A DNA stretch of 63,837 nt, the filler included, from Hausera hauseri (lineage: Eukaryota), in NCBI GenBank assembly GCA_046269625.1. It is 12 parts of 12 records of this genome, joined end to end, with 100 filler letters (N's around TTAATTAATTAA, not from the genome) between each part and the next. Parts side by side here need not be neighbours in the genome. Positions count along the whole stretch, not along the records: positions 1 to 4,304 come from JBJURY010646553.1; 11 more parts are not named here. One strand, 5' to 3'. The number at the start of each line of letters is the position of its first letter. Position 1 is the first letter of the stretch. Shown in pieces: positions 1-59,699 of the stretch. Made by a program: the position numbers and the translations under genes. The notes beneath the pieces are model-generated. The model was not told the origin of the DNA. It did no database searches and worked only from the letters and a program-made list of their open reading frames with translations.

Positions 1-1008
1 CTATATTGATGTGAAAAATTGGGTGAATGCTTGTGAAGTATGTGCGACTAAACAAAAAAGACAAAAAATTACATGGCAGAACTAAAACCAATTGATGTGC
101 CCGACAGGCCCATGCAAGCCATGTCGATGGATATAGTAGGACCTCTCCCTACGACTCACAAGAACAATAAATATATTTTAACATGTATTGATAGACTAAC
201 TCATTTCGTCGAGTTGAATGCATTAATTGATCAAAAGGCAGAGACTTTAGCTGAAACCGTAGTAAGAAGGATTATTTGCCGATACGGGCCCCCAGACCAG
301 ATACTCACAGATCGAGGAAGAAATTTCACCAGCGAACAATTCGAGAAAATCACTAAGATATTTGAAATTGAACGACTAACAACTACCGCGTATCATCCTC
401 AGTGCAACGGAATGGTCGAGTGAATGAATGCCACTGTCATATGCATATTATCGGCAGTAGTAGTAAAGGACCAAAAAGATTGGGACGAATTTTTGGAAGG
501 GACTCAGTTTGCTATTAATACCACACCACATCCAGCAACAGGGTTCACTCCATTTTTCATGATGTATGAACGCGACGCCGTGTTGCCCACGGACCTAGGA
601 ATGACGCCATACACATTTAATCCAGAAGATTTATAGCAAAATTTCGCAGAAGTATTGCAAATGCGTTTGCAAAAGTGTTTGGAGATCGCTAAAGAATTAC
701 CCCAAGAACATCAAGAACAATTTAAAAAGTAATATGATAAGAAAGCAAAGTCGCATGATATAGAACAAGGAAATTGGGTTTATGTACACTATCCTGTAGC
801 TAAAAAAGGCACCTCATTGAAATTGACCCGTACAGGCAGAGGACCGTACGAAGTAACCAGAGTTACGCCAACTACAGTATATATTAACAAAAATGGAGAG
901 GAAGAAATCGTATCAGTACAAAAGGTTGTCAAGACAGAGATACGACCCAATAAACGTTACAACTTACGCCAACGCGAGATAAAAGCTTCTTCAATAGTTG
1001 CTAGGCCG
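1..1008 (+). mobile_element. Ty3/Gypsy integrase, 3' part of pol, disabled by in-frame stops
   Basis: One frame carries WVNACEVC (end of Zn-binding region), MDIVGP (D), TDRGRNF (D), TTAYHPQCNGMVE (E), TGFTPFFMMY, GRGPYEV (GPY/F motif) and RYNLR. Stops at 421-423, 634-636 and ~730. Confidence 0.93.
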
Positions 1009-2407
1009 ATATCGTACCTTCAGATAGTTTTAGCATTATCGCTAATTGCTTCTTACATTCCGGCAACACAAGCCAAATGGTGGCACGACGAGTCGACGCT
1101 AGGAGATATATACGGAATTCGGAAGAGTGGATCAAAATCGGAAACTATCAAAACGGAAAAGAAACCAACAGCCGAAGAAGTTCAAAAACAAGAAGACACC
1201 AAGTTATTGCAATCAATGACAATTCATTATTATTCACCAAACTACGTATGTGTTGGATTTAAGGCTTCGAAACCGCATCACGACTTCGGAAGATTTCAAA
1301 TTGTCTTACTTGACATAACCACAAAAAAGCGAGAAAAGAGCCTGGAGCTTATATAAACTGTTGTGACAAAAATTTTGGACGCACTTATAACCTCACCTAT
1401 GGCCTATACTTACCAGACTCATCCGAAGTTTATATTGAAACGAAGCCACAATTCCAATTAGTCGTCCCTGCATGGAACAGACATCATGGAGTAAAACCTA
1501 ACAAAATGTTGCGATCCACTGACCCAAATATAAGAATATTAGACGAAAATATCCAGAGAATCTCTGTGAATAAGGAAAAACAATGTATTTAAGTAGATGC
1601 TGGAACAGGATTAACTCTTAGTCAGGAAATTAGTATCACATTCGAAGCAGTAATTGGACCGACCCCGAAAATAGGACATTGTTTTATTCGTGCAGGCGTG
1701 CAACATCCATGTTGTAAAATACCCGTGAACTAAGAATTCAAGATAAAATTTGACTTACACAAAGTACAGCATAACAAACCAAGTGTACAACTCCGAACTT
1801 ACTATCCAGAAATTAAAATTTGGAAAATTTTAGTGGAAGCCATGACCAAAGAGTCGACCACTACGGTTAATTCCTCTACTCGTGCTGTTACAGCAAGTAA
1901 AATACCCGAAGCAGAATTGGAAAGCACATCGATCAAAATTTCGGCACACCGGTATAAAATCGTGTTCTTCGTGGAAAAGAAACAAAATTACGATATACAC
2001 ATAAGTTGTCGAACAATGTACAATAATCAAATTGTAATATTATCTAAAAACACTTATCAAACAGAATGCAATTTACTAAAACCACAATCTGAATACGTAA
2101 TACAAATACATGCACAGAACAAACCCAAACGATTACATTGCATACCTTAGACGAAATTCACGCAGAGTCACATACGCATGAAAATATAGACGACGAAATT
2201 ACAATATCATTTACTACTCGAGCACCACTAGGATTAACTGCCTTACCGATTGCATCTATTACAGTGCTGTCAACGTTTGCTCTCATTATATTAATTGCGA
2301 TTTTTCGACTATTTATTAAAAATTGTTATTCCAAGCGTCATAAAAATTCAGAATGGGAATTAAGGGAATTGAAAAATCCTGTGGATCCCTATGATAAAAT
2401 ATCTTGA
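1009..2407 (+). pseudogene. Env-like type-I membrane protein continuing the integrase frame: signal-like segment, Cys-containing ectodomain, S/T stalk, FN3-like domain, TM helix, short tail
   Basis: Hydrophobic ISYLQIVLALSLIASYIPATQA at 1009-1074. Manual translation of ~1340-1833 gives a continuous frame with 2 stops that joins ORF 1833-2150. LLKPQSEYVIQIHA from ~2073; TM LPIASITVLSTFALIILIAIF at ~2243-2310; terminal YDKI. Confidence 0.6.
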
Positions 2408-2527
2408 CAATTACAGATCAGGTCACGCTGTCATTAAACAAAGAATTGGTTTTGGTTCAAAACAATCCTTTATTTAAAGATTAACCTTTATATTTTCTTT
2501 TTCAGATTAGTAAGTAATAAGACCCAG

Positions 2528-3306
2528 ATGAACCCGAGCCAACTTGGAATCGACACCGAGGAAACTGTGAGTCGACTTAGTATCGACGAATTTTTACAGC
2601 AATATGTGACCGTACGAATCCCAATTCAAAAGCCATCTATAGGCAAATCAGTAGAGAATTACAAGGAAAGAACTTCATTTAATACAGAAAAGTTTGCGAG
2701 AATCCAAACAGTTTGAAAGGAACAACTGAAGAGGCCAGAGCTATATATTTATATGCCTGGAGACAGGATAAAGATGCCAGAGCATACCCTTTGAAACAGA
2801 TCACCCAACACCAAGCGAATAAGAAACAGAGAATATATGTACATTTGGCTGACGGGGAAATCTACTATAGGCTGAAGGACCAAAAATGGAACTCTTTCCA
2901 AGGAAAGTAAAGCCGGTTTAGCACTTTTGTATTTGACAGTAGGAATTTCCACAACTACGAATTGGAATTTTGTGTAGCCGCCTTACCTGTAAAAATGATG
3001 GTCGAAATAACTGAAGAGGAAACAATATCCATCTCATTGCCGCCCTTAAAGTTTAGGCAAAGGCCAAATGAAGAACAGGACGCACATCTACATTCGTTTA
3101 GATTAGTAAACGATGACAGGAATATCAGAATTGCCGCAATAAACTACGGAGAAAGGAAAGAAGGAAATTATATCCCGATCGAAATATCCATCCGAGAAGA
3201 AAATGGGGCCAAAGTCTATTCGAAAATTATTAACCCGAGGAAGAAGGTACTAGAAACATATGCAGAAGTTACCGGTATTAAAAGAAAACAATGGCTCTCC
3301 AGGTAG
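2528..3306 (+). pseudogene. Unknown ~260-aa accessory ORF, probably part of the same element (1 frameshift, 1 stop)
   Basis: ORFs 2713-2910 and 2962-3306 share a frame and are separated only by one TAA. ORF 2528-2716 overlaps in another frame. Same A-rich composition as the upstream element. Preceded by a splice-acceptor-like tract ending at 2505. Confidence 0.45.
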
Positions 3307-3814
3307 TCTATTTCTGAAAGGACAAGAAAAGCACTTTATATGCAAACTGTACCAAGTGTATTTAAATAACCCCTATATGCCAGTCCATTTTGTGTTCTCC
3401 AGCCTTTGCTGATTCCCTCAGCCTTTTGTCCAACCCACCCCAATTCCTGGCAGAATGAATATCTACACTCTGCTGCAACACAGGGGGTCTAATGTGTGTG
3501 TGCTGTAAAATAGGAGAAAGCATTTAGACAGCATATGTATGCTCTAGCACTCGAGCAACAAGCACTTTTTCCTCTACATACACACATACACAAAGGTTAA
3601 TAAGACCACTAGCCATGGGGCGTGGCTGCATAGTCCACCCTCCATCTTGCCAGCCAGGCTCCATGCTGAGCCACCACACCCACCTGACATTATGCATCCG
3701 CCTGGCTACGACAGCTCACATATGGAAATCTGGCACCACTGGTGGGGAGGGGTCCCTCACGACCTTCCGATTACAACACTCCTTTGTAACAACTACGGCA
3801 AAAAAATAGTTAGT

Positions 3815-4304
3815 CATTTTAAATGTAATTAAGTTTAAAAATATTTTCAAGACCCCACAAGCCTTAGGATCAAATATAAGATTTAAACATAAAATTCAGA
3901 CAGAAATAGAAAATTCTAGATCGCAAAACTTTACTCCTGAAAAAAGTATTGATGATATTGAAGCAAGAAAAGGATTTAAAGAATAACAGTAACATTATAT
4001 AGTAAAGAATGTGAGCCGAATAAACTAAAATCGCTTAATAAAGATGATCTTATGATGTACATAAGTTTAGATATAATAATAAAATGAATTGAATAAATAA
4101 TAAAAATGAATTGAATGTGTTTAATTTTCAATTATGTTGTAAAGTAAGATATAATAAACCAGATGAAAAACGAATACATGATAACTATTTCATATCTTCT
4201 AAACAAATTATTAAAACATTTGATGATATTGATAATCTTTTAAATAAATCATTAAATGATGTAAAAACTAAAATCAAAGAAGTAGAATTAGATTCATCTG
4301 GATA
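3815..4304 (+). pseudogene. N-terminal fragment of a Polinton/adintovirus-type protein-primed PolB ORF
   Basis: Degenerate C2H2-like FKCN...IFKTPQALGSNIRFKH, then ...LNDVKTKIKEVELDSSG at the contig end, which resembles ESQDTKSGW in the PolB at ~30670. Confidence 0.5.
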
Positions 4305-10143: not shown

Positions 10144-10791
10144 TTACCAAATCGTCACAGAACAATTTTTTAAATTTTCCTTTTGGTATCCTAGTGGCAT
10201 ATAAACAGAAGAAATCCAAATAGAAAGCTGTTTGACACAAACGGCAACAACAGCAATCATATCGGCAAACCCTTCAGTGTAATATCGATAAATCCAATTA
10301 ACAATGTAGAAGACCCGACAAATACCCAGTGCAAATAGATAGTGATACGTTGTTGTTTCGGCGGTACCAGATTTTGTCATCATGAACAATTGTGGTAAAA
10401 TGGCCACTGATTCGAGATATATGAAAAATGTCCATGGAACATCTAACGTTTCCATTTTATGATTTTCTAGAAACGCCAAACTAATTGCAAGAATAAGGAG
10501 AACTTCTATTCGAAACGTGTAATCTTCTGCATTAAACGTCGCCGGAAATTTCATGTACATGAAATAAATGGCGATGTAGATGAGCGTGATGAAAGTTACC
10601 TTCATGACCGTATTGCATACCGATACGAACGACGTGAAAAAGTCCAAATATCGTGTCGTAAATACCAACGCAAACAAAATCTGCGTCCTACCAGACAGAC
10701 CTGCACATGATCCTGTTTTCATCATTTTCATCAGTAGCACGATAATGGCATCGAGATGCGACAAATCACCAATAAGTCGGAAAATATTCAT
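10144..10791 (-). pseudogene. KDELR: ER lumen protein-retaining (KDEL) receptor, intronless, frameshift near the C-terminus
   Basis: MNIFRLIGDLSHL, SCAGLSGRTQILFALVFTTRYLD, WTFFIYLESVAILPQLFM, HYLFALG, NWIYRYYTEG. The canonical tail QTAFYLDFFCLYATRIPKGK is in another frame (ORF 10025-10240). Confidence 0.92.
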
Positions 10792-13726
10792 TTTTTGACG
10801 AAATATGACGTATTCCAAATTCGAAAATCTCAACAAAATTGTTTACTATGGCGGATAACAATTCAAGAAAAATTGCTAAAAAATTTGAATTGCATTGAAA
10901 AAATTTATTATTATTTAAACAAAAAAATATGCACATTTGTTAAATACCTTGCGAAATCGCCCCAAGTAGACCAAACCAAATCCAAAAGGGAAACCAAAAA
11001 ACGCAAACGCAACAGAAATTATAAATAAATGGCCTAAATGACAATGACGCAGATTACTAATGTTAGAAGGTTAGATATCAACGATATTAGAAATGAAATA
11101 TTTACAAGGTTCTGCTTTTACAAATGTTTGAAATCAAAATCAACAGTTTTGGGTTTTAATATTTCACACTCAAAATTGCAATTGATCGCACGAAGTCAGG
11201 AAATATCCATACCGATACGATTACTGATAATGAATCAGAAACTTTGTGTCGAAATGTAAATGAGTTCGACAGAGGGGAAATCGTCAAAAATCTCTAGAAC
11301 ATATTGTTGAATCACGGAGTACGTTAGTCTAGACGAAGAGATTTGTAAATTAAAGAAAAACTGTCTAAAATTGCTTTTATGTGTTTAACCGAAGTAAACT
11401 GTGTAGGTTTTCGAAAGTTCATCTGGGGTGGTCGAATTAAGACGGATTGTTATAACGATTAGAATTTTCTGAATTTTGTTTGGGATTTTTGTACGGAACG
11501 GTTTCGGCAACTTTGCAAATGTACGACGGTTAGGTTTGTAATAGGGTACGTAAAATCCGAGTACTTAAAATTTTTCCGTAATGCAGCAGAACGCTGAATT
11601 ATAATGAAGTTTGGATTCGGCTCAAAGGCACATTGCCAAACTTTCGTATTGCAATCGTGTACATTATTGTCTGGCGTGACATCGAATAAAATGGAGTGGA
11701 TCGTAGTCCGGTGTTCTACCGTTCACAAGAAAACCATTGCTATTGGATGTGGGTTTGAATATTTGACTGATAAATAATGTGACTGGTACACCGACCAACT
11801 TTGGTACAACTTTCCTTTGCTTGTCTTTTTCCATCACGTCATCAATAACTTTCTGTAGAGTTTCTCGAATACTTGAATATTCATCTGTTTCTTCGTTACA
11901 AGAATTAACAAAGCCATAAACTCGTTTTTTAAAGGATGCTGGTCCGGGTCTCGTCTTTGAAACGTCACGAGACTTGTATTTTTTATCATCAATATTAGCG
12001 ACGGAGTCGGCAGCCTTCTTTGACGATGACAAGAGGTAGTTGCTGAATTACGGCTTCTGCTGTTAAATAAAAAATCTGGAAAAGAAATTTTCATACAGTC
12101 ATTATCGTCATCCAAATTTCAAGCGTCAGCAGTACTGATCTGAAATGCATAGAACGAATTTGTACCTGAATAATCTTTGTTCATTACGTAAAAAACAAAT
12201 TGCCTGCAGTTTCACTTGTTCGAACTTAATGACAAATTTAATACTTTTGAAATTCAATAGGAGAAATACATAAAACTTTAGATGGAGAAATTTTTAAGGC
12301 GGAAGATCGGGCCCGACTATGGGCCCGACGCGGCGGCAGCGGACGCCCGTCTGTGCCCGACCAAATTGACCAAAGGGCACCGGCCGCTGTGGGCACCACA
12401 AATACCAGTTCCATTTTCTGATCAAACACAGCGTACGTACTTCTATTCGAACTATGATGCAAATGTTATCTACGTATGATGGTTGTGTTATTGATTTGTC
12501 TAATTTCATACGTTGTCCTTGGTTGTTTGGCTAGATCATTAAATTTTTATAGTATTCAATTCTTTTTTTATTTCTGCATATAATATCGTTACTCGACCAC
12601 ATATTATGAAATAAATGTAAGTTATTAACTTAACAAGGGACTATATTGTATCGCAACTCCTAAAGTCGCGTTTCTAAAATCACACTAATTAAGGGGAAGA
12701 GTGGACCACTGTGCCTCCTGATGTCGGATTCTAACACTAAGACCAAGTCGCAACAACCCACAGGTTTTGAGGTCGAAAGTCCAAAATCATTTCTGATCAT
12801 TAAAACTTAACACATTTATTGAATTTTCTATTAAGAAAAACAAGTTGGACCAATGCACGAGTTACTTTGAAATAACATTTTTCAGTCAGATAGTCTTAGA
12901 CTCATTATCTCAATATTTTGCTGTATCAGTTTGTATTCATAACATGTAATATTCAAGCATTCGACACCCATGTCAAACATTGTTACGTGATATTCATTAA
13001 TTTTCTGTTTGATAAACTTAATTTCATTCGAATGATTTGATAATTTATTAATATTGTTCCTGATACATTTTGCATCTTTTATTTTAATAAGTGCTAAATG
13101 ACGTAACATTTAGAAGTGAAGAATGATTAACTGATTTCTCATTTGATTATTTGAGATATTTCGAAAATTCCGTACATTATGTTTAACAAATTCCTTTTGG
13201 TAATTGAAGATTTTTTATGTATGTTTCTTTCGACAATTAAACTTTTGAACTCGACGGTAATAAAAAATAAAAACACGTAACTTAATTAACATTATGAAAA
13301 TCAGTAACTACATTTTAGTCTTTTAACAAGAAATACTCGTAGTAACATCTCGAACCACCCAAATGCACAATCTCCTTCTTTCTTCTGCATCGAATAAAAC
13401 AATCCGTAGATTATCTCTATGTGCTATTTTGTTGGTAACATTCTTCCGATTCTATTAATCCAAATTCGCCACACTTAAACTGTTCGATATTTTAAACAAA
13501 TACAATGACAATGCACTCTTTGCGGGTATTTAAGTCAATTTAAAAGGGTGAGACTTAATTTTTAATGCATAAATTAAATTTTCGGCTGAACAAGAAAGAG
13601 TAGATATTTTATGTATGAGATTCTTANNNNNNNNNNNNNNNNNNNNNNNNNNNNNNNNNNNNNNNNNNNNTTAATTAATTAANNNNNNNNNNNNNNNNNN
13701 NNNNNNNNNNNNNNNNNNNNNNNNNN

Positions 13727-16700
13727 ACATCGTCGAGTTTATTACCGTTTCGTCTGTCTTCTTCGCTGTCAAATAGTCTTGATCAATTTACTTCGTAGAG
13801 CAATCTTCTTGCTGCTTTTCGTGCTAAACGTACAGCTCTATTGATTTCATTCTCTCGATTAGGGTTGACTTTGACAGCTAATTATAGTAATACTTTTCTT
13901 AATTCCTCGTTGGTGTTTTCTATGATGATCTTTTCGATCACTCCTTGGTCGGTTAGATTACTCTTCGATAGTTTAAAGCGTGAACTTCTCATCATTTTAG
14001 ATGCATTGAAGATTATCTTTTCTTTTTCATCGTATATATCGCCTTGAAGGCTTGAATAATTTACAATTCGTATTAAATTCTTCATTAACTCGCTTAATTC
14101 CTCATTATTTGTACTGAGGGTCGGAGTCGACATCTGTCTCAGTTCCTTAATTCGTTCTCCATTGTAATCGAATTCTTTTCGCGTCTTCTTAGGCCTACCG
14201 ACTGGACGTTTCGGCCTGGGCCCTTTTGTGGTTATTTCACTCAGTGGTACTAAATTTATGTCGTATTGTTACTTATCCTCATCTGTTTGCAAATACTCAA
14301 AATACATGGCAGCGTCTCGGACTCCAATAATTTGTCCTACACATTTTCGGTTTTGCTTTACGTGTGGCTTCCTCTTTCGTTTGCTCGTTCGCTATCGTTA
14401 CTACTATCCTACTTGTTTCATTTGGAATAATCCCGACATCTATTAATTGTTCCATATCGTCGAGTATTCTACCTCTAAAGTAAAATCTATAATTTAACTC
14501 GTGTGATCCGCCATTATTTAATAACCATTCTATCACGTCCCTTACATAGGAATATGTGGTTAACTCACATTCTTTTTCGTCCATCCACTCGGATGATACC
14601 ATTACCTTCATCGCTACCTCAGGTTTAACCCTTAAAATTTTAGCATATTTCCTTATCAAAAGTTACCGTACTATAAATTGTATTCGCACTGGACAATTTA
14701 GTCAAAGTTGGAATAAGTTGTATTAACTTATTTTAAGTAATATTTACGTTAATTAGTTTAATTAAATCTTTTTCAGTTAGCGCTGAGTCCAGGAGCATCT
14801 CCACATCGAATCTATTGTTCTGCGGACACGTTTCTATCTCATTTATTTTTACTAGGGTCATGGGTTTTTCAACCAGTATTGCGTCGAAGTACGCGTCCCA
14901 CTCCGGCTCATTTCCGACATCTGGAAGTCCAGCGCCTACCAAGGCTACACTCGTTCTTTGCACATTTTCTCGAATTTCTTTCAACCTGGGCTGTATTTCT
15001 TTTATTTGCGTAGTCCGGAAACCTACTCCATTTCCGCAGGCATACTGAATCATTTTCAGTAATTCGCCGAATTCATTGGAATCGACGAGTTCCTTTTGGT
15101 GATAATCCGTTAATTCAATAATTACATCCTTTTGCCATCTTTGTACGAATTCTCGCTTATTTTTGATTTCTGATTCTGTAAAAGCATATTTGTTTCGGTA
15201 ACTTTCGAGTTCTTTTGTTAATTCATCTAGTCTCGTTGCTCTTTGTTTTGTTTTGATGCACGTTTCTTCTACTTGCTGTAATTTGGGCATCAGTTGCCTC
15301 ATCCTCTCGCATCTGACAATTTCTTTACGAACTTATATTACTGAAAACAAAGATGTTGGTCATTTCTTATCTTTATCAATTCGGTATGGAAGTTATGATC
15401 TGATCCGGTCATCCATTCTTGGGGTTTATGCAGAAATTTTATCGCGTCAGTTAAAGCGGCTCGGTGCTCCGGACAAATGTCTAGAGTTTAAATATCCTGG
15501 ACAGAGATCTCGATAGGTTTATCTGTTAAATGTTGAACTCCTAATCAAACATTTCGCAATTTTGGATAAAAATTGCAAGCCATATTTCGCTTTTCAGTAA
15601 AATCCGTCTCTTCGATCATTTTATATATCTTCCATTATCGTCACTTCTTGTTTATTCATAAATTTAAGTCGTCGTAATGCTTCGAATCTCGTTCGTATGT
15701 CTATTACCGCTAATATCGTATCTAAATTACGTACACTTTCTTCTAACTGTTTACCGAAGGCTCGCTTTCTGGAAATTCTTTCTTGCGGTTTTTCACTAAT
15801 TTCCTTAATCGCATTACTAATTTGGACCATTCAGACAGTTGATTGGCAATTATTGGCTTTGCCATTATAGCCTTATCTAGCATCTTATGCATCTTTTAGC
15901 TCATCATCTTGCCCTCTTAAGAAATTCATAATCCGGCCGATATAACTAAACTCGTCCTTGTATTCACCAAATTCTACGATACAAGCCTTTATTACGTCTT
16001 GAGCCTCCTCGTGATTTGGGGACATAATCCGGTTTCTCAAACTGCAAATCTGTGCACGTTTTTCATTTTCTATCTTAATTCGATTTTCTAGGTTTGTATA
16101 TTGTTTGGGTATCGCAAATGAGATTTTTATCATCTCCATCAAGGGAGGAATATCTACTGGGTCTATACCCAATATTTCCAAATCAATATTACTTCGGTTG
16201 CTAACCGGTTTCTCTCTAAGCCGATTAATCATTGCGCAACGAATTTCATCCATCATAATTTCTAAATTCCGGGTTACTCTCTTCAGTTTTGGGTTTGATT
16301 CTAAGGTGGACAGTAGCGTTTGAGCTTTAGTGACTTTTACGTCGACACTATCTTCATTCTTGCTCCATCATTCTGAAAATTCGACTCCACTTTTAATCCA
16401 TGATTCTGATTCATTCTTCCATTTTAACATCCTTCCAGGTGATGACCCTTCGGGTTGTCTTAAGTCGATCGCTTCATTGAGCTTCCCTTCACTACATAGT
16501 TTTAAATTTTTATATAACCTCTCAGCATACTGTTGCTCTTTTCCGAATATATCTACTTGTTCGCTAATCTGCTTAAGCCTCTCTAAATTTCGCTGTAGGA
16601 CTTCCGGGTTGAGATACCTAATTCTCATTCTCTTTAGCTCATCGGCGTTCTTCCATGAACGTCGGACTTTCCATTTTTTGGATCAAAATAGTCAGTATTT

Positions 16701-17901
16701 TCCATTTCTTCCTCACTAATGGGAAGTGGATAAATCTCGTTAATCTCGTTAGTTGATCCTAGACTTCGCGGTTCCGACAGGCGTGAGTGATCCGATTTCT
16801 AGTGTATTTATATTATGTCCTATGACGTCTTCCATGACGATGTTTGAACTTCCCGTTTCTTCAATACTCTCTCTAGTTACTTGTGAACGTTAACGACTCA
16901 TACGCTTTGCCTTAAATGAAGGGCTACGGCCTCTATTTTTCGTAATTTTAAGTATTAATGGCTCCATAAATTCCTTTTCTGCTGTGTCGTCATCAGTAGA
17001 CTTATCCACTTTTTCAACCGTGAACTCAGGCTCTGCATCTATGTCGACTGCTGTCGATGTGTCTGGTTTATCCGATGGTTTATTACTTGTCGGAACACTT
17101 ACGTGTCATATCGCCTCGCTTAGGTGCTATCGCATGCTCGTAATCAGTTTCTGGTTGTGCTAAACCATGATATACTTCTAGTAGTCTCAGCTTCTCTCCG
17201 TATTCTTTTCTAGCCATCAAAATTTGTGGATTAATAGATTCAGGCTGATCGTCTAGGAATTTCCGCAAATCTTGTATATCTATGATGGTACCTGTGTCTC
17301 CACGAACACCATACTTTGCTTCTAAATTGTAGTTAATTCTGATCGTGCTAGTCTTATTTGGCTCCGTAAATGAAGTGCTACGTGGGTTTGGACATGACCT
17401 TGAGATATGCCCCTCTTTACCGCAAGTAAAACAGACTAAATTCCCATTTCTACCAATTCTTTGTCGATCATCTTCGTTCACAGGTGACTTAGACCTATTT
17501 ATACTTTTATTATACTGGTTTGACACGCTTTGGGCATTATCTGCATTTCTTCGATTGTCACTATTTCGGTTATCGCCGTTTTGATTCGAGCCCTTATAAT
17601 ATCCTCTATTCTTATCCCAGTTAAAATCTGATCTGTTCGTATTAGTATAACTATGGCCTCCGCCATTCCTGTAACTACTATTATTATTTCGGTTCCCATA
17701 ATTCTTGTTACCCGTAAATCGTCTGTCATCTCTTCCACGATTGTCGTTCCGATTTCTGTCGTTGCGATCACTTCGATCATTATTTCTGTCGTTTCTATTG
17801 TTGTATCTGGCGTATCTGTCGAGTGCCATTTCTAAATCTTGAGCTAACTGTAGAGTTCGTTCAAAGTTTTCGGGTCTAGCCAAGATTAATTGTTTAACCA
17901 A
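13727..17901 (-). mobile_element. Retroelement Gag with CCHC zinc knuckle followed by a >1000-codon decayed extension (charged/coiled-coil segments, Ubl domain, AT-hook-like motif)
   Basis: RPENFERTLQLAQDLE (Gag capsid C-terminus-like), N/R/D-rich linker, CFTCGKEGHISRSC. A chain of co-oriented broken ORFs continues to the contig end with no protease or RT seen. Confidence 0.7.
14399..14611 (-). other. Ubiquitin-like domain (integral type, no terminal GG) inside the Gag extension
   Basis: MKVMVSS..EKECELTTYSYVRDVIEWL..GG...YRFYFRGRILDDMEQLIDVGIIPNETSRIVV aligns by eye with ubiquitin MQIFVKT..TITLEVEPSDTIENVKAKI..EG...[31 protein letters not shown]. Confidence 0.7.
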
Positions 17902-18308
17902 ATCTCGTGACCAAATACCATGGATTGAGTCGTCATCATGACATCTAGATCTTGCGGTGTTGCCTTTTCTGCGGCATCACGTTCCGCATCTGCTTTGGCT
18001 CTAGCCACATTTGCTATCCTCAATGTGTTTATATAACTATTAGCAAGTTCAACGCAAATGCGAACTGGGTTACTGATTCAACCCTCTGTTGCACTCTATT
18101 TTGAAATGCCATAAGTTTCTGTTGTGGAGTTACGGTCGGCAATAATTCGCGGTTTAACGCTCCTACCCGGGANNNNNNNNNNNNNNNNNNNNNNNNNNNN
18201 NNNNNNNNNNNNNNNNTTAATTAATTAANNNNNNNNNNNNNNNNNNNNNNNNNNNNNNNNNNNNNNNNNNNNAAATTAAAAAGTAATAGCCTGGAAAATC
18301 GCTGCATA

Positions 18309-27679: not shown

Positions 27680-30600
27680 CATATCAGTGAGGTAGTGTCT
27701 GGATTCCATCATTCAGAATCTGACTCCTGTCACCAATCTAATCTAGGCTGTTCTTCTGTAATGTTACTGTTTCAATGTTATGATACCTGGACTGGATCCT
27801 TCGCATCTCTGATATGATGTGAGTCTGCTCATGCACAACTCTCATATAATCCGCAAAAGTAATATTCTTGGCTAAGGTAGTTCTATAAATTCCCTTATCT
27901 CTCTTTTTGATCTGACCACATACATCAATGTCATACATTATGGACCTAAGATATACAAATTTCGAGATGATTGCCCCATTAAACTTATATTTGAATTTCC
28001 CAGGGACTTTCTTGTTGGTAATTGAATAGTTGGAATGATCCTTCAGATAGTCAGACGTATACACATGTAGAGCCAACTTAGTAAAGTCTTCATAAATGTC
28101 CTCATTATGGATCTGATAGATGAAACTATCAGTATCCATACACATCAACTGCATAAACTTGAACTTGGGGACCATGATGTCATCATGGAATCTGCACATC
28201 AAGGTCTTTGATAGATCCAATATCGCTATATCCACATACATGGGCTTGTTGAATACCAGTGCTGTTTTCAGCATATGAATGCTGACCAAGTTCTCAGCAT
28301 ATATGGTGCTGCTGTGGAAATTGAGCTTGGCAATAAGCTTCTTCGTCCGCTTCCACTCATAGACCAGTTCGATGTTGAACCTGTTGTGGATATTCTCCAT
28401 GGTCTTGGCAAAAAAACTCTGTTGTTGTACAGCTTGAACTGGTCCTTCTCAAAGTCGTTTTTGGAATTTTCCACAACTTCGTATTGAGATGTATGTAGGG
28501 CTGCAACGATTTATACTGGCTGAACTGCAGGGCCCGATGGATCTTAGTAATGCGGAGTCCATTCCTGACCGCCTGCTGGAGATTGATGTAGTGGAATACA
28601 TACCTCTCCCTATTATCCAGATGGCAGAGCAGCTTTCTATGATTTCCATTGGCGGAAGCTTACTTTCAGGGGAAAAAAGCAGCTGCTCATATCTTTGTAC
28701 ATAGAAGCCGGATATTTTATATCTACCTCCAGTATGTATCCGGTATCTCCAGTGGGATCCAGGTCCAGTATAAGGATGTTATTAGGATGCTCGACACACT
28801 TGAATTTATAATATGGCAATGCGGAGCTCATTGCCCATCCACATAGGTTGTTGGCATCCATGTATGATATATATGAAGATTCATTGGATGGATCAAACTG
28901 GGTCATATGCTTGTTGTTGGCCTCGTCATACCGGTAAATTTCCTGGCATATTCCGCCTCTAATGTCTCTCTCAATTATGAGATCATGTCGTTTTCCTTTA
29001 TTATCTGCAGACTAATACCTCTATATCTCAGCATAGCGGCCAAACTAATCCCTGGAGCTGTAAAGAAATGAGCTGGATCTAATGCATAGCTCTTCAACGT
29101 AACATCCCCGAAACTCTCAAAGACATCCGTCAGCACAGCACGTCCGTCGTGAGGTATATGTCGCTGTATTCTCCTAATGTTCGGCATTGAAATGCATCCC
29201 AGACGTTTTGAGCATACTGGTAGTCCTATTATTGATATCGAAGTTAGAGACTATACTGCAAAAGTCCTTCTGCGCCGGCAATGAAGTATCATCCAGTGTT
29301 TTCCGTAAAGTTATATAGTCATAGGGAAACACGTCTTTCCTCATGACAAGATCAAATACAGTGGGATAGAACGGCTTCGTTTCCTTGAGTCCTTCTGCAC
29401 GGAGGTTCTTCACTAAACTGTCAAGTGAATGCAACATGAAACGGAAACTACCTATGAAACGTAGCCTGATTTTTCCAATATGCTGGGTAAATGTGTTTCA
29501 TTTTTCCTCACTATTAGGGATCACATCAATGTTTCCTTCAATGCTGCCCAGTTCCCGAACAACGAAATAGGAATCATAGCTACTAAGATTATAAAACACT
29601 ACAAGCACATATGTACATGTTTTGCAGCGAAGATTGCAGTTGTTGCATGCTGCGCCCCGATATTTGCCTGTAAAATGGAAATGATTCCTAACTTTATGAT
29701 TCTCCTTGGTGAATGATTTGGAGCACAAGTAACATGCTGTTGCCTTGCGCCATTCTTCTTCTTGCTGCTTCGACATGCTCATTGTATCCTTATGCTGCTG
29801 CTGCATATCTCCATTCCTATGAGCCATATCTTCAAGTACTTTCATGAAATGTGCTGCTGCATCTGGACCTCTAAATAGATATGGTTCACTGTCCAGTCCT
29901 TTGGCATATATGCAATATGACGAGAGTTCATTATATTGGTATGCCGTTGTGCTGCTATGTTGGGGATTAGGACTGAAACTCTGAATTGCACGCAGAATAG
30001 ACTCAAAGTCGCAATAGATAACTATTGGGACCTTGATCTTCTTCTCGAACTCCCTGAATTCAATGTAATCCTCCTTGCGAAATTCCGGCCTGATACAATA
30101 ATTGTTGTTGCAGTACATTTTGTGCTCTTTCAGCTTTAATACAACTACGTCGCCGCTGAAATGGGACAAGAATCGTTTACATATTTCTATTTGTTCATTA
30201 TGTTTTGTAATTTGTGATCTGACTTGTCGCTCAAAGTCTTGGATTCAAACATAATGCTTCTTTTCTCCATCGTCTAGCAGGAGCAGGTCCATATGATCTT
30301 CGAATTCAGTATCGCATATCTGCAGGGGATAAAATTTATCATCCTTTTTCAATCCCAAGTTATTGATGGACATGTTGACTTTTCCAAATTTTTAACTGCA
30401 TCTATGAATGGAGGGAACTTGATACATTGGAAGTAATAGTTGTGCTGCAGTTCATTATATAACCAAACTCGATCTACTGCATGATTTTGATCCCGTACGA
30501 GTTTACATAAAATGGCATACATGAAACACTTGTTGTCATCATTATAGACATTGACACACGCTTTTTTATTAGCGATCCCATCAGGGAGCTGAATATATGA

Positions 30601-48900: not shown

Positions 48901-51254
48901 TTTGAAGTTGGATATGAGGCATTGAAGACCACTCTCAACTTCGTGGTGCATTTATCGGGTCTGAAAACACCATGGTGGGGTAAATAATATGCGGCTGAGG
49001 GTTTATAACTTTCGTGAACTTCCTCCATGTGGCCCAACTCTTCATACTCTTTCATGAACGACGTATACAGTCCTAAGAGCTCAGATGATTTTGATATACG
49101 TTTCCACAAACAATTTAAATTTCGTAAAGCTGACGATCTGGATTCTCCTAAGCAAGTTGGATCCTCCTTGAATGGCATTTCTACTACATATTTACCCGAA
49201 CTATCTCTTGTATGTGTGTCCTTAAAATGCTCTTCGCAAATGATTTCCTCTTTAGTTTTCGTAGCCTCCGTATCTTCCAGATACGAATTCTCTATCTCCC
49301 AGAATTTTCTCATTGATAAATTTAAATCATCTTCCCTATTACTAATCATTCCACAATGTGTTACGTCTACTGAGTTAAAATCACAAAGAGCACCTCCTAC
49401 TATATAACCAAACAAAGAATCTTGGAATATTAAATTGGAATTTGGAAGGCGTATTTGTTCAGATTTTAAAATTTCAAAAAAACATTCTGTTCCTATCAAC
49501 ATATCTACCTTTCGAGGTCTGTTGAATTCAGGGTCCGCAAGTTTCATGTTTTCTGGTACTTCAAAAGTTGTAAAATCGAAATATTTTCTTGGGACAACAT
49601 CATTTATTTTTGGAACAACCAAAAATTCTAACGGTCTAGTGTAACCTTCTTTATTTGAGATGACCGTTTTTACCTTAACATTTATTACTAAAGATGTTTC
49701 GTTTAAACATGAAACTGCCACATTTATTCTTTCTTTCTTTATTCCTAACATATTTGCAAAGTCACGTGATAGAAAACAACTTTCACTACCGTTATCGCAT
49801 AAAGCTCTACATGGCAAATAATCACCCTGACAATTCTTAACATATACCATTGCAGTGGATAAAATCGTTATTTTTGTTTTTGCCTGAGAATTATTTATAG
49901 AGTTTCCTATAAACTGATTATTAGTGCGAGCATTCAAACTCTCAAAATGTTTTGCATCAGCATTTAAATCGGTGTTTGAAGTTATAGGCCATGTGGCATC
50001 ACTCCTTTTCTCTGTGGTCGAACATTTTCTGTCTGGCGCCTCTACGTCTGGGAGGAGTATAGTTTTGGATTCCTGCTGTATGTGTAGGAGCGTATGATGC
50101 CGTTTCCCACAGATTGCGCAAGAATTATTAGAGTTACATGATCGTACAGAATGATTTGCGCTTGATAAGCAATTAAAACAGATTTTATGTTTCTTTACAA
50201 GATCCAGTCGTTCGTTTACATTCAGTTTTTGGAATGAGATACACTTATATAAATTATGAAACTCAGATTTACAACAAAAGCACTTTAGATTATAATTTTT
50301 TACACTAGTAGTAAGTGTAGTCGACTTCTGGGTTTGACGCGGCTGATATTTATTTGTTGAACACGTGATGTAATTAGGATTCTTTGAAGCCTGTATTGTT
50401 CGAGAGTAATCTTTTAGGAACGAAATAAGTGCGGAAATCTTCGGTAGCTCATCCCTTTTCGATTCCCGTTCCCACCAAAGTTTCGTAGATGAATCTAGTT
50501 TTTGTAACAACACATAAGCCATTAAAGTTTCTGAGAAGCCATCTATTTTTTGTTCTAACAACTCTAAAGATCTTATGCACTCATTAACAGTATCAACCAA
50601 TTTCAAAATTGAATATGGGTTCTCAGTTTGAACAGGAGGTATTGTCATAAATCGTTTTAAATGAGCAAAAACTTGATCTCGTGTATTGGAATATCTCTCT
50701 TCTAAGAGATTCCATGCGATCTCGTAATTCGCGTCAGAAATTGAAATAGCGTGAATTATTCTCGAAGCGTCACCATGCAATGACAGTTTAAGATAAGATA
50801 ATTTTTGTGAGGCAGACAAATGTTTATTATTATGAATACTTGAACGAAACAAATCTCTAAAACTCAACCAGTCCTGAATATTACCGCTAAATGACGGTAA
50901 ATTGAGCTTAGGTAATCGAACATTTTCGGCACTATTATTTACTTCGGTTTTAGACAAACCAGAACTGTTAACGGTTACTCGCGAGCTTTTACTCTTGACC
51001 AAAATCCATAGTTGATCAATATTTTCTTGAACGGTTTGCTGTTCACTAATAAATTTATCTAGTTCTGTTTCTTCACAAATGCCAAAAAGTTCATCAAAGG
51101 GTTGAGAACATTCTCGTTCAAATTTACCACATTTGTTTTCATACAATTGCAATTTAACATTATCTAGATCGCCTTTCTCTACTTCATTGGTAGCTTTCGT
51201 AATGCTAGCTTTAAGGACTCTTTTTTTTGTTAAAAGACGATCCATTTTATACAA
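45978..51254 (-). CDS. BEL/Pao Gag-Pol polyprotein, intact 1758 aa
   Basis: LPKLNLPSFSG (BEL Gag), three Cys/His knuckles, RALCDNGS (PR), YYLPHHGV/KLRVVFNAS/YMDD (RT), HGFSDA...SIPRLELCAA (RH), GVDFAGP/SDNATTF/GGLWEA (IN), LTPGHFLIG. Confidence 0.97.
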   Translation of the reverse strand: MYKMDRLLTKKRVLKASITKATNEVEKGDLDNVKLQLYENKCGKFERECSQPFDELFGICEETELDKFISEQQTVQENIDQLWILVKSKSSRVTVNSSGLSKTEVNNSAENVRLPKLNLPSFSGNIQDWLSFRDLFRSSIHNNKHLSASQKLSYLKLSLHGDASRIIHAISISDANYEIAWNLLEERYSNTRDQVFAHLKRFMTIPPVQTENPYSILKLVDTVNECIRSLELLEQKIDGFSETLMAYVLLQKLDSSTKLWWERESKRDELPKISALISFLKDYSRTIQASKNPNYITCSTNKYQPRQTQKSTTLTTSVKNYNLKCFCCKSEFHNLYKCISFQKLNVNERLDLVKKHKICFNCLSSANHSVRSCNSNNSCAICGKRHHTLLHIQQESKTILLPDVEAPDRKCSTTEKRSDATWPITSNTDLNADAKHFESLNARTNNQFIGNSINNSQAKTKITILSTAMVYVKNCQGDYLPCRALCDNGSESCFLSRDFANMLGIKKERINVAVSCLNETSLVINVKVKTVISNKEGYTRPLEFLVVPKINDVVPRKYFDFTTFEVPENMKLADPEFNRPRKVDMLIGTECFFEILKSEQIRLPNSNLIFQDSLFGYIVGGALCDFNSVDVTHCGMISNREDDLNLSMRKFWEIENSYLEDTEATKTKEEIICEEHFKDTHTRDSSGKYVVEMPFKEDPTCLGESRSSALRNLNCLWKRISKSSELLGLYTSFMKEYEELGHMEEVHESYKPSAAYYLPHHGVFRPDKCTTKLRVVFNASYPTSNGLSLNSLQLNGGVVQDDLFSIMLRFRTYRYAYTADIEKMYRMILIKPEQRDLQRILWKNCETDAVKTYRFNTITYGTTSAPFLATRALKQLAIDEESKFPLAAPIVLNSFYMDDVLSGAQDQSTAKELVCQLTELLHKGGMKLHKWCTNEPQILEGISNNAREYSFSCPNETKVLGILWRTETDSFSFKVSIFERDSNTKRSVLSDIARIFDPLGVVGPVVLKAKIFMQRLWLLAIDWNDSLPYKENKEWHEFVVSLKTMNNVLIKRCILIQDYVHVHIHGFSDACEDGYGAAIYVKSISVTGEIAVNLLCSKSRVAPLKKLSIPRLELCAAVLLAQLLQKLLKCLQVNISDVYLWSDSTIVLAWIRNCSQALKTFVANRVHHIRTLTDSYQWRHVRSSDNPADLVSRGIDPDKILHNNLWWHGPSFLHQTELPVDVIDNSSMDREEYFCELKGHPKSKQETDQTVTVSLTVYFNADSFFSEIVNCSNKYAKILRVLAFVYRFCHNVKCPTGRLVGPLTSKEITFAENSLVSYIQRLYFQGEVHNLEKGRCVSVKSKLKSLNVFLDDNKVLRVGGRLKHAAVSYLQKYQAVLPGNARFTRLIVEYVHNKYFHAGPQALLSYVRQKFWPISGRSLCRKVAHDCVVCVKAKPVTSEQIMGDLPPERVKPTFPFNVTGVDFAGPFSVKKNSHRKAVFSKIYVAVFVCFVTKALHLEMVSDLTSEAFIASLKRFFSRRGKSLRIFSDNATTFVGANSELKRLHKLVRIPDKNLAYYLSEEGVDWSFIPPRAPNFGGLWEASIKSFKYHLKRIVGNAHFTYQEFETIIVQVEAILNSRPLVPLSSDGDDFEVLTPGHFLIGRPITALAEPELIDVKDTRLSRWQRTTKVVQSIWRLWSQSYLSTLQQRTKWMFQKSNVQLGALVLIKDERLPVNKWSLGRIIGLCPGSDNRIRVVEVKTAKGIFKRSISKICILPVKF

Positions 51255-51420
51255 ATTTTCACAAAACAGAAGAAAAGAAGGCTCACCTTGTATTCAGGAA
51301 ATGCAGATTCACAACAGTTAATCCATGAGAGCAGACACAGGCAGAGTACATAATTGTCAGTGAACACGACGATTTCAACCATAGGACGATGATTCTTTCT
51401 CCGGCTCTGACGGCCAAGAA

Positions 51421-55300: not shown

Positions 55301-56600
55301 ACCGACAACCCAAAAGGCACTTCTTAGCATCTTTTCAAAATCGCGTATGATAGAAACAAGTCATGCATCCGCCAGGTGAAATGGATGCAGCAGAGTGTTT
55401 GGAAATGCTTCTTTCTATTGAAGGCCTGGTTTCACTTCGTCAAGGCCCATTAAGATTATTTAGTTGGATAGTAATGGCCGAAATCGACTGCTGTAACTTG
55501 TCAAACTGTTGCTGCATTATTTGCAGTTGTTCAGTAAAATATGTTGTGTCTATACTTGGAGCACATGTGGTTGCAGCCGCAATAGGGAGAGAACTGTTGG
55601 TATGAAGGATCTCAAAGGATTTGTCAGCCATTATTGCCAGTTTTTTGATAGCAGTGGACTCCTCGACAATGGTGAGTAAGGCTCTGATTGAGATGGGCAA
55701 AGACGATAAAAAATTACGGCGAATTAAATCCGCGTTATTTGTAGGTGTCACTTCTAGCGGGCTGAGCTGCAGAATGGCCGTTTGAAGAAAGTCAGATGGC
55801 TTTTGATTTCCTATCGCGTGGTCATTAAAATACTTTTGTATTATATTGTCAATCGAAGGATCCGTGACATGCAGTACTGCTTCACAGAGTGTCTCGTAAG
55901 GTGTCGAAGATTCTAGCAGCTCGGAGATATTAATAATCTGCTGCTTGACGTTGGAAGGCAGAAGAATTAAGGGGCTATTGGCTCGCACAAAAGAATCAGT
56001 GATGTTGTTCGATTTTAGCCACTGCTGGTGGAATTGGAGCCATTGTTTGCTGGAGTTGCTTTTGTCGAGGAAAAATTCCACACACGGTAAATTTAATGAC
56101 CCTCGTGACTGTTGGGAATGTGGCAAACGACAGACGTTGCCTGTATTCGTGGATTTATCATCCGAGAAGGATGGATTTGAGTACGATCCTCCCCGAAGGC
56201 GAAAATGGAGCACCAGATGAATGATGGGACGTTCGTGGCATGTTAAATGCAAAAGGGAGTCGGAAGGATGTATTATAAGCCCTTTATATGTGAAATAGAA
56301 ATTAGAAGCGTTATACAATGAGGACAAAGCATTATATAAGAACTGTACTGTCTCGTTGAGTGGAGCTTTTAAGGTTGTAATATGTTGATTGTAGCTAAAG
56401 ACCGGGAAAGATAATTGTAATGAGGTCGTCCCAGGGAAACGATGAAATGCACGAGGCTTGGGCGATTACCTTTTGGGTTAAGAAGCGGTTCGAGCGCACA
56501 GCAGGGATGGCGGTGACAAGTACTGAATGTGATGAAAGAATATCTAAGGTTTTTGAGCTCAAAAGGTTTTCAAAATTGAGACTGGTGTTTGTCATCAAAG
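52329..56600 (-). mobile_element. Decayed Gypsy (CsRn1-like): Ubl-gag, PR, RT, RH, IN
   Basis: IEFLIDSGATFSLL (PR), SNSPWASPL...CGDYRQLN...HPYIDDIL (RT), TTDASTT (RH), HLDLVDPLP...WPEAVPL...ITDQGPQFE...NGLLERFHR (IN). Confidence 0.95.
56187..56430 (-). other. Ubiquitin-like domain ending in RLRGG, in frame with Gag
   Basis: YNQHITTLKAPLNETVQFLYNALSSLYNASNFYFTYKGLIIHPSDSLLHLTCHERPIIHLVLHFRLRGG|SYSNP... continues without a stop into Gag (ORF 55440-56327). RLRGG is at 56201-56187. Confidence 0.8.
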
Positions 56601-56699
56601 ATATGTAAAAGCGCAAAAAATGGCCAAACTGGTGGGCGCAAACAAGTGAAAGAAATTTCACCCACCTGTGTCTAGATGCCTCTGATGATGAAGTGTCTG

Positions 56700-59369
56700 C
56701 CGGTCGATCAGTGAGGTAGCTGTCAACTTGCAGTACGTCCATAAAATCAATACGGTGGTCTGGTCCAGAAAGTCCAGTCCAACACATGTCAGCGAGCGGA
56801 GATTGGACAGACAGACACGTGTTTCTGGTGAATTGCACATTGGGAAACCGCTGGGACTGATTCTTTTTTTATTATTAAGGCCACTTTGGTCTTGCCACGA
56901 ACAAGTTGCTGCTAACTGACTGGCTCGCCGCCACAACTGAACATCCTCTTTTCGACTGGCAGCTGGATAAAAAACAATGTTATTCACTGCTTGAATTAGT
57001 TCAAATTGGACAACACATTTATCGAGCAATGATGCAAATGTGTGAATTTGATTATCATTTTGTTTACCCCCATCTTCTGAATCAGATTTGTCTTTTGAAG
57101 TATTTGGCTTCCATGTTAACAATTGATGAGTAGACAACTCGAAAACATCTGTTAACAAAATACATGCTTTCCCCCAAATATCGGAACTGAACTTATCATT
57201 CGATATAATTACTGTTTCCAGACAACTTGAGCCGGACCTAACTAACTGCTCGTGATCTTGTAAACAACACTATTTCAGTTTATTGAGCAAGTTATTCAGA
57301 AGAACTGTGTAAAACGTCGTAATACTGCGAAAATACATCAACAACAGCATAAAGCGTATGATTGCAAGTGGTATTTAACCATTCACGTCTGTCATTCAAA
57401 GGAAAATATTTGGCTGAAGCATGCGTTGGTCCGGTAATACTACTCGCTGCCGGTACATGTTGAAGTACCCGAAAGACTAAATTAAAATTATCCTGCCACA
57501 AACGAGACCTGAATCCACTCCCGTAACCTTTTATTATTACAAAGAATACTGTCAAGCCTCTCGTACGAACGTCAAGTTTGCAGTTGCTAATCACTCTAAA
57601 AAGTTCGCATAGAACTGGCATCCAGCCTTTTATCCAAATTTTATCGTCATCATCAATTTTATCATATGACAAAACCGTGCCGGATTTCTCTATAGGACTA
57701 AGGAAACTTTCTTGTGACGAAATTTCTTTGAACAAATGACCTTGCTCTTCAATTAATCCGGCACACTGTCGAATCAATCGTATAGCTTCCATGTTAATGT
57801 CCGGAAAATTTGTGTCACAAGCAAATTGAAGTCTTAAAGACGTCTTTCACAATAAAAGACAAAGTTTCGAACGCCATTTTAACGATTAGTTCCTGCTCTA
57901 ATAATGCACCACTAGCAGCCCGTAAGAACACCATGAGAACATTAGTCGATTCAGACCGAATGTTGCTCCAGAGATTGTACAAATTGTGCGACACAACGAA
58001 CAACCATGTCTTCCACATTTTTCGATAAATTTTCCTTACCTTCCGTAACACTGACAAATGGCCTAAAAAAGTTTTTTGAAAATGGAAATTGGGGAATTCA
58101 CCCTTTTCAACAGATTCCCCTGCTAATTGCCGTAACGAATCCATAGCGAATATTGCAACTTCTTCATTAGATGACCTACCAGCATCTGTAAAATGTTCAC
58201 CGATTATTTGCCACATGCGAGACCATTGAAGACGTATTCGTCCCATATTGTAATAAGATATTTCTACCAGTTTTTGTAAACTGAATATTCGAGGCTGAGG
58301 TAGAGAAAGTCCATCTTTGCTCACCTGGCATAGGGCTTTGACAAAGTCAACAATCGCGTCTATCTGGTCGGACAGAACCAGTAAAAACTTTATCAACTGC
58401 TACGATAACACTTTGAGAACCGGTTTTACCCATAACTTTTTGAAGCAAGGCGATGTTCTTTTGTATATCAGCTAATAAAGTTGTTAAATTAACTGTAGAG
58501 ATCCCATCCACATCCGAGAAGCTTGATTTAGAAGTTTTTGATACCTGGTTGCCAATATATTGTATACCATCGGACTTCGTAATAGTTTTTGGATACCAGC
58601 ATTAAAAATCTTTGAAAATATTTGTGTTGCACGACTCTCTTGAAGCACTTTGGCGGTCCAGTACTACAGATCAATTGAGCTCATTCCGTTGTTCCATTAT
58701 TTTTATCTACCAACGTGTCTTCGTCAATTCTTTCTGACACATCAGCAATACTTTCGTTTATTTCCATCACTTCCGCTGTAGTTTCTTTTTCCATTTTATT
58801 AACGATGGAATTGAGCATTTGAGTAAGAGTTGCTTTAGCAGTTGTTTGGTTAACCTGATCTCTGCTAGCTAGATAAATGCCATAGCACGTGCGGACCATG
58901 TTAATCAGATTATTTTCATGAACTTCTAATGTTGGATTGATCACAACTGTAAGAATACCTTTAATGATTTGCAATTGTACAGTATCACCTGATTGACCGT
59001 TTTGACGACATTCACAAATGTGAGTAACAACTCGTTCAATCGATTGCTCTTTTTTGTTTCCATACACAGCATTGTTGGAAATGTGGCCAGATGCAATAAA
59101 CTTGTGTACACAGTCCAGAGCAACAACAACGATGTTTTGTGATTTTGAAGTAAACGCTAATTCGAATGATTCAAAATATTTTGCATTAGACATCAAATCA
59201 TCGACTTCGGAATTTACTACTGGAAGCACAGAACCGATGCCATTTCCAAAAACTGATTTGCCATCGGATTGAGTTTTATTTTCATAAGGGAACTCTGGTG
59301 TACATGTGACCAGAAGATTGCTTACGTTACTATTGACAGATACCGAATTTAAAGTAAAATCTGTGTACA
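56700..59369 (-). pseudogene. ARFGEF1: Brefeldin A-inhibited ARF-GEF (BIG1/BIG2 type), intronless, disabled, missing the HUS-Sec7-HDS1 block
   Basis: DCB: KYFESFELA..SKS..IVVVALDCVHKFI, VQLQIIKGILT, NQTTAKATLTQML. HDS: GSQSVIVAVDKVF, FSLQKLVEISYYNMGRIRLQWSR, MEAIRLIR, CKLDVRTRGLTVFF, EWLNTTCNH, KCVVQFELIQ. BIG1 vs BIG2 not resolved. Confidence 0.9.
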
Positions 59370-59699
59370 NNNNNNNNNNNNNNNNNNNNNNNNNNNNNNN
59401 NNNNNNNNNNNNNTTAATTAATTAANNNNNNNNNNNNNNNNNNNNNNNNNNNNNNNNNNNNNNNNNNNNTGTTTGATAAAGTGTTTCCAAAGAAGTATTT
59501 TGGATTATAATAAAATTGTCGACAATTGGTGTTACTTGTCAATGAGCAATTACAAACTCTTCAAATTCTGATTTAGCGGATAAACCAGGAAGCGGGAATT
59601 TTCCAACCCTACCCAAGCTGGGCGACGAGATGGACGACGTGAATGCGTCCGCGGCCAACACAGATGAGTTCAGATTATAAAAGGCTACGGAAACACTGA

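Follow-up and report, generated by a model that had tools for sequence, protein, structure and literature searches.

The stretch of DNA analysed here, the window, comprises 63,837 nt, filler included, from Hausera hauseri. Twelve N44-linker-N44 spacers and one short gap join contigs of ~4–10 kb in it, and adjacent contigs are not genomic neighbours. The locus described below lies on the first contig, which ends at position 4304 and whose left edge falls inside an integrase gene. The segment at 52–420 matches Pfam rve (E = 2.3e-16), and the integrases of foamy virus and Ty3 are the top PDB sequence matches; the C-terminus carries what we take to be a GPY/F module. Three stops, at 421, 634 and 730, interrupt the gene. 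Used as a tblastn query, the integrase matched Gypsy-like ORFs in the window and gave no match to the window's BEL-like ORF; it is 27% alike to another Gypsy-like integrase within the window. It is of the retroviral (rve) type and of the Gypsy/foamy kind, as is characteristic of Ty3/Gypsy elements (Metaviridae). Searches by tblastn and blastn within the window returned no second copy of the locus, and an Rfam search over 1–4304 gave no match. The features of the contig are listed in Table 1.

Table 1. Features of the first contig, in window coordinates.
Feature	Position	Strand	Basis and remarks
Gypsy-type integrase, core and C-terminal GPY module	1–993	+	Pfam rve and PDB sequence matches; cut by the left edge of the window
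Predicted signal peptide, sharing the integrase frame and lacking a Met in this copy	994–1074	+	Hydropathy; likeness to P0003
Predicted FN3-like domain 1 (4 Cys in P0003), approximate borders	1216–1473	+	Mapped from P0003 76–165; frameshift at ~1315–1340
Predicted FN3-like domain 2 (4 Cys), approximate borders	1545–1832	+	P0003 189–284; stops at 1590–1592 and 1731–1733
Ser/Thr-rich stalk	1833–1919	+	S+T 0.37 in the matching part of P0003; disordered in the model
Predicted FN3-like domain 3 (2 Cys), approximate borders	1920–2150	+	Model and fold search; weak Pfam fn3; frameshift at ~2124–2131
Single transmembrane helix	2249–2315	+	19-mer hydropathy 2.66 at 2249; a TM helix occurs in P0003 and P0004 too
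Short basic cytoplasmic tail ending YxxPhi, then stop	2316–2407	+	Y-x-x-I in 3/3 sequences
Splice-acceptor-like tract, AG at 2504–2505, donor-like site four bases behind	2486–2515	+	Simple score
ORF B, ~260 codons, one frameshift, one stop	2528–3306	+	ATG at 2528
LTR-like stretch, TGT...ACA ends	3348–3791		GC 0.49, CpG o/e 0.24

No stop interrupts the frame at 733–1356, which leads from the integrase C-terminus (GPY at 841, RYNLR near 955) into a hydrophobic stretch with a best 19-mer hydropathy of 1.82, at 994; an in-frame Met occurs in it at 1216 only. Frame +3 (1314–2150) carries the gene onward, as the piece that holds both stops, and is followed by frame +2 (2093–2407), which ends in PYDKIS. 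It is thus broken into three pieces by two frameshifts and two stops. An ORF with a signal peptide and a TM anchor following pol is the arrangement seen in Ty3/gypsy elements that carry env.

The middle piece, its stops written as X, was searched by phmmer against 1.84 billion representatives. Only two matches were obtained, P0003 (479 aa, E = 5e-45) and P0004 (189 aa, E = 1e-21), both unnamed singletons encoded on ENA contigs (4.9 kb and 16 kb, respectively). P0003 is intact and covers 997–1314, 1323–2123 and 2132–2404 in order, runs continuously across both frameshifts of the window and tiles the gene without any need for introns. The three pieces score 73.6, 180 and 28.9 bits against P0003 by tblastn, the best of 200 shuffles being 29.6; the last piece, weak alone with P0003, reaches 52.4 bits with P0004. 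Identity between P0003 and the window is 36% (161/451), and 64% between 994–1134 and the P0003 N-terminus. Ten of the 12 Cys are kept; of the two that are not, one falls in the zone of the first frameshift and the other in the TM helix. P0003 has its own Met directly ahead of the signal peptide, where the window has none. A profile search returned only P0003, and word-index protein searches for longer, fused relatives found none, which is weak evidence. Locus searches of viral, metagenome and prokaryote collections yielded no relative, and PDB sequence searches with P0003 and with the profile gave 0 matches.

These results agree with much of a preliminary description of this DNA, which had the integrase frame entering a signal-peptide-like stretch with neither stop nor Met, followed by a gene in need of repair at 2 frameshifts and 2 stops. 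It named Cys pairs, sequons (here at 1389 and 1869), an S/T-rich stalk and an FN3-like motif, and each of these is present; the sequon at 1389 has no counterpart at that place in P0003. The one TM helix and the tail ending in PYDKIS are likewise found, and Y-x-x-I stands 4 or 5 residues from the end in all three sequences (window, P0003 and P0004). The YxxPhi motif is a sorting motif.

The window was compared with contigs of a single DNA run, X1. X1 holds 0.37 of the sampled words; it might stem from the source organism and might not be independent of the window. At 80% likeness, 8,835 X1 contigs fall on 1–4300 and 2,861 on 940–2420, mostly less than 95% alike, numbers that do not represent a copy number. 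The divergent contigs on 1–4300 make the region a dispersed repeat, as is the case for Ty3/Gypsy elements. One X1 contig spans 764–1083, from the integrase to the signal peptide, with 59 other letters and 0 gaps, which indicates equal spacing and not a stop-free junction; another joins 1059 to 2575. At the two stops of the gene, 59 and 52 contigs differ from the window, with summed depths of 2299/2490 and 4912/4977. No small indels are listed among the X1 contigs on 940–2420. As many divergent contigs lie over the integrase and the gene, one of them bridging the two and most lacking the stops of the window, the surface-protein gene most likely belongs to a repeated element. Fourfold-degenerate sites point the same way: the A/T fractions are 0.47/0.19 in the integrase, 0.42/0.24 in the surface-protein gene and 0.40/0.20 in ORF B, and the A-over-T bias common to the three suggests that they have long resided in the element. 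The integrase's bias is not seen in four other genes in the window (0.28/0.37, 0.36/0.35, 0.31/0.27 and 0.31/0.36).

Among the 40 best-supported of 229 differences between the window and X1, 10 are synonymous, 28 are non-synonymous and 2 lie at the stops. The synonymous share (10/38) shows no excess over the expected 31% (p = 0.77). Since these differences are almost fixed against the window, neutral decay of this copy is their likely cause, and they are mute on selection in the family. That the gene was under protein-level selection at some time is supported by the intact relative with its kept Cys and by the contigs differing at the stops.

Several other features were seen in the window. At 13727–18172 (−) a Gag-like CCHC knuckle (PF00098, E = 9e-7) is followed by ~3 kb of broken, unassigned ORFs, which have no protease or RT match and one weak ubiquitin match (E = 0.04). 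Its fourfold A/T of 0.40/0.23 is biased like that of the locus described here, so that it might form the 5′ half of a comparable complex element; nothing links it to the first contig. An uninterrupted ORF of 1,771 aa at 45981–51293 (−), presumably a BEL/Pao gag-pol by its motifs, has no env extension. The stretches at 27741–30244 (−) and 41552–43554 (−) are what we take to be Polinton/Maverick DNA polymerase and capsid-like pieces. Neighbours of the BEL/Pao and Polinton kinds suggest that the DNA is an animal's. An apparently intronless copy at 56398–59421 (−), broken over several frames, is possibly a processed pseudogene and presumably Sec7/BIG-like; an intronless ORF of 232 codons at 10147–10842 (−) we take to be KDEL-receptor-like. 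A 480-codon open frame at 38034–39473 (+) has a weak SPT16 match (E = 0.00026) that lies below the cut-off.

The fold of the surface protein was predicted from P0003. The AlphaFold model (5-row alignment, mean pLDDT 53, pTM 0.28) is of modest confidence and displays three seven-stranded beta domains (76–154, 193–282 and 328–398), a disordered S/T stalk and a TM helix. Domain 2 (189–284) is modelled best, with pLDDT blocks of 64–82. Domains 1 and 2 are internal repeats (0/1000 shuffles), and domain 3 is weakly like domain 2 (26/1000 shuffles); a separate attempt to align domain 2 with domain 3 gave no alignment. Modelled as a single sequence, the window piece gave nothing usable (pLDDT 35), and the best Z of 4.0 in its fold search is meaningless.

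Foldseek with the P0003 model yielded 311 PDB matches at E up to 0.001, the best at 9e-9. All 41 matches listed are FN3 fragments or what we take to be FN3-containing receptors, with E of about 1e-8 to triple-FN3 fragments. The global TM-scores are low because the packing of the domains is not resolved in the model. Single domains matched by VIA-align with Z of 7–8.6 and rmsd of 2.3–3, mostly to FN3 proteins and in some cases to other Ig-like folds; domain 2 aligned with the Tie2 FN fragment over 88 residues (Z 7.8, rmsd 2.7). A VIA Z of 7–8 is within reach of unrelated models or of a common arrangement, and the top row is a de novo Ig-like protein. Pfam fn3 scores 12.6 bits (E = 0.16) at domain 3 of the window and 13 bits (E = 0.12) in P0004, against a cut-off of 25, and finds nothing in P0003. 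The ten best named matches in the ESM Atlas all belong to the FN3 family or clan (score 0.89, with features overall at 0.85–0.89), which we regard as a lead only. A match to the Zika NS3 helicase (E = 0.03) was rejected as chance. From the model and the fold searches, the ectodomain very probably contains three FN3-like domains. The FN3 fold of the preliminary description is therefore retained, and its single domain gives way to three predicted ones.

The hallmarks of F-type env, a furin-type RxxR site and a fusion peptide, were not found. P0003 has no RxxR site, and no 15-mer of its ectodomain exceeds a hydropathy of 0.65, hence no fusion peptide could be located. In the model, residues 75–402 of the ectodomain are taken up by FN3-like domains, linkers and stalks. 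The fold-search matches listed include no viral fusogen, and the top rows from the viral library are FN3-bearing phage and algal-virus proteins; the combined AlphaFold and Foldseek check that had been proposed thus returned FN3 matches for the model. A heptad scan of P0003 gave a best 28-residue score of 0.43, with no control. The net charge is +8 for domain 1 and +9 for domain 2. Because it has neither an RxxR site nor a fusion peptide, the modelled protein appears to be built like a receptor or adhesion molecule rather than like an F or gB env. What was called env-like holds for position and topology, and not for cleavage site and fusion peptide. The idea of an independently acquired, element-borne type I membrane protein of receptor- or adhesion-like kind, with a predicted FN3 fold and a conserved YxxPhi tail, is supported.

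Downstream of this gene, the AG at 2505 ranks first of 226 AG sites in 1–3350 by an ad hoc simple score. The donor-like motif behind it is kept in 3/3 divergent contigs that show it. Only four bases, 2506–2509, separate the acceptor-like and donor-like sites and could be a micro-exon. The ATG of ORF B is found at the matching place in 6/8 divergent contigs listed, and long X1 contigs cover 2547–3200 within it. By hydropathy, ORF B has no signal peptide and no TM helix, and a family search in Pfam and PHROGs gave no match. ORF B is likely a second accessory gene. In the LTR-like stretch beyond it, CpG is depleted (Table 1) against an o/e of ~1.0 in the adjoining coding DNA. There is no partner LTR in the window and no abutting polypurine tract, and the flanks do not form a target-site duplication. 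The stretch may be the 3′ LTR of the integrase-bearing element or the LTR of another element. X1 contigs give no cover of 3313–3744, which proves nothing.

Two routes of expression were weighed for the surface protein. We lean slightly towards a start of its own, most likely on a subgenomic or spliced RNA, over an extension of Pol with an internal signal and release by signal peptidase. A separate start would fit the Met of P0003, the spliced env described for Drosophila gypsy (PMC4276936), and Cer1 of C. elegans, whose 3′ ORF is numbered within the polyprotein yet expressed as a spliced exon (PMC10309623). A Pol extension would fit the missing Met in the window, the precedent of Atlas virus and the want of a strong acceptor before the signal peptide, where the AG sites at 997 and 1023 rank 77 and 9 of 226 by the ad hoc simple score; single Gag-Pol-Env polyproteins are described for nematode belpaoviruses (PMC9094657). 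The earlier suggestion that Pol reads directly into the gene is upheld for the open frame in this copy, and the one gap-free contig agrees in spacing. As a polyprotein it is called into question by the Met of P0003.

Taken together, we consider it about an even chance (probability roughly 0.5) that a repeated retroelement of Gypsy type has left its decayed 3′ half in the contig, with a predicted triple-FN3 membrane protein in the env position, likely serving attachment or adhesion and not fusion. The likeliest use of such a protein in the env slot would be attachment that brings particles, or the cell producing them, against a target cell. This role is proposed from the adhesion- or receptor-like anatomy, with its signal peptide, predicted disulphide-rich FN3 domains, stalk, TM helix and sorting-type tail, together with the env position in a retroelement. 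A shared fold alone shows no function. The FN3 protein would reach the cell surface and be sorted or recycled through its YxxPhi tail, and the basic domains 1 and 2 would bind the neighbouring cell or its matrix. Binding would hold particles or the donor cell against the germ cell, host machinery would carry out fusion or uptake, and ORF B would likely be a separate intracellular accessory protein made from spliced RNA. A precedent for env-independent, contact-based transfer is described in PMC11952523.

Several other explanations must be set beside an attachment protein. Some large DNA viruses make decoy receptors, and the protein could be an element-borne decoy or dominant-negative receptor, whose short-tailed FN3 ectodomain would soak up or internalise a host signal or immune ligand. 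The short tail, the want of a catalytic domain and the kept YxxPhi would suit this, and class II cytokine receptors (IL-20R2, IFNAR2, IFNGR and IL-22R1) are among the VIA rows with Z of 7.1–8.0, tied with other FN3 proteins. We nevertheless find it unlikely, as these rows do not outscore fibronectin, Dscam, NCAM or Tie2, sequence searches matched no receptor, and the env position and basic surface suit attachment equally.

Lower in our estimation, though worth naming, is an attachment subunit that would sit on enveloped particles and work with an unseen fusogen, either EFF/AFF-like from the host or encoded in the unseen 5′ half, the subunit itself possibly being a Pol extension like the Atlas Env. 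The env position, the type I topology and the open frame from the integrase without a Met agree with it, as do the belpaovirus polyproteins (PMC9094657), and GAG-ENV-POL layouts in non-insect elements (PMC13524379) mean that a fusogen could lie upstream. Against it, the protein is without fusion hallmarks, ORF B has neither signal peptide nor TM helix, and no fusogen gene is linked to the contig.

The FN3-TM architecture is typical of animal receptors, this copy is dead, and the window also has other apparently intronless host-like copies; these points fit a captured host receptor retrocopy riding along without function, or a host gene adjoining a single insertion. This we regard as improbable in view of the many divergent contigs with a gap-free bridge to the integrase, the element-like codon bias, the 36%-identical intact relative with kept Cys, and the phmmer search, in which neither of the only 2 matches is a named host receptor. 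That the protein is a membrane fusogen of a new structural class is most improbable: it is the sole membrane protein seen in this half of the element and lies in the env position, but the predicted FN3-like domains, linkers and stalks account for the ectodomain and there is no cleavage site or fusion peptide.

Going beyond the contig itself, we tentatively raise the idea, doubtful as yet, that an animal Gypsy lineage swapped its viral fusogen for a triple-FN3 attachment protein, in frame with Pol and accompanied by a second, spliced accessory gene. If true, metazoan Gypsy 'envelopes' would come in a third kind beyond F and gB, with the germline reached by adhesion. An FN3 gene kept in the env slot would mean that retroelements, like large DNA viruses, can take up cellular adhesion or receptor modules for use as surface proteins. 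P0003 would provide an intact natural protein for studying how fusogen-less elements cross from soma to germline or modulate the host. Searches of open-access papers on retrotransposons and fibronectin or FN3 turned up no description of such a gene.

The locus resembles Ty3/gypsy elements with an env gene in that a Gypsy-type pol is followed by an ORF with signal peptide, ectodomain, conserved Cys and TM helix, and in being repeated (PMC13524379). The survey of Chary and Hayashi, which was seeded with known env baits, sorts the env genes of invertebrate Gypsy elements into F-type and herpes gB-type fusogens, which are both viral in origin, and the word 'fibronectin' occurs 0 times in its main text (PMC13524379). 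Unlike these, the protein described here has three predicted FN3 domains and neither a furin site nor a fusion peptide, and another ORF lies behind its gene. In Atlas virus and the nematode belpaoviruses the envelope gene is continuous with Gag-Pol in one frame, a likeness to the open frame in the window, whereas Atlas virus is a BEL/Pao and not a Gypsy element, has a class II phlebovirus-like fusogen and is a case where the polyprotein fusion was shown (PMC9094657). The CERV protein of Cer1 is a nuclear RNA-export factor and not a membrane protein (PMC10309623); the analogy concerns the expression route and ORF B.

Comparable in its proposed use is sORF2 of the MDG1 group, a non-env membrane protein linked to the passage of a Gypsy element from soma to germline through cell contact; sORF2 is short and FAST-like, whereas the protein described here is predicted to be a 480-aa glycoprotein with folded domains (PMC11952523). 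The LTR elements of bdelloids are similar in that Gypsy-like elements capture varied third ORFs. The ORF3 types described in the available text comprise F-type env, small TM proteins, a GDSL lipase and a DEDDy nuclease, none of them FN3, and that text warns that TM helices and sequons alone are no proof of env (PMC5408684).

Finally, the protein is like animal FN3-TM proteins (fibronectin, contactins, Dscam, Tie2, gp130 and RPTPs) in the tandem FN3 fold predicted across its ectodomain. It differs from them in its low identity in structural alignments (8–16%) and want of a PDB sequence match, in being intronless and carried on a mobile element, and in having two domains with a four-Cys pattern that includes a CC pair.
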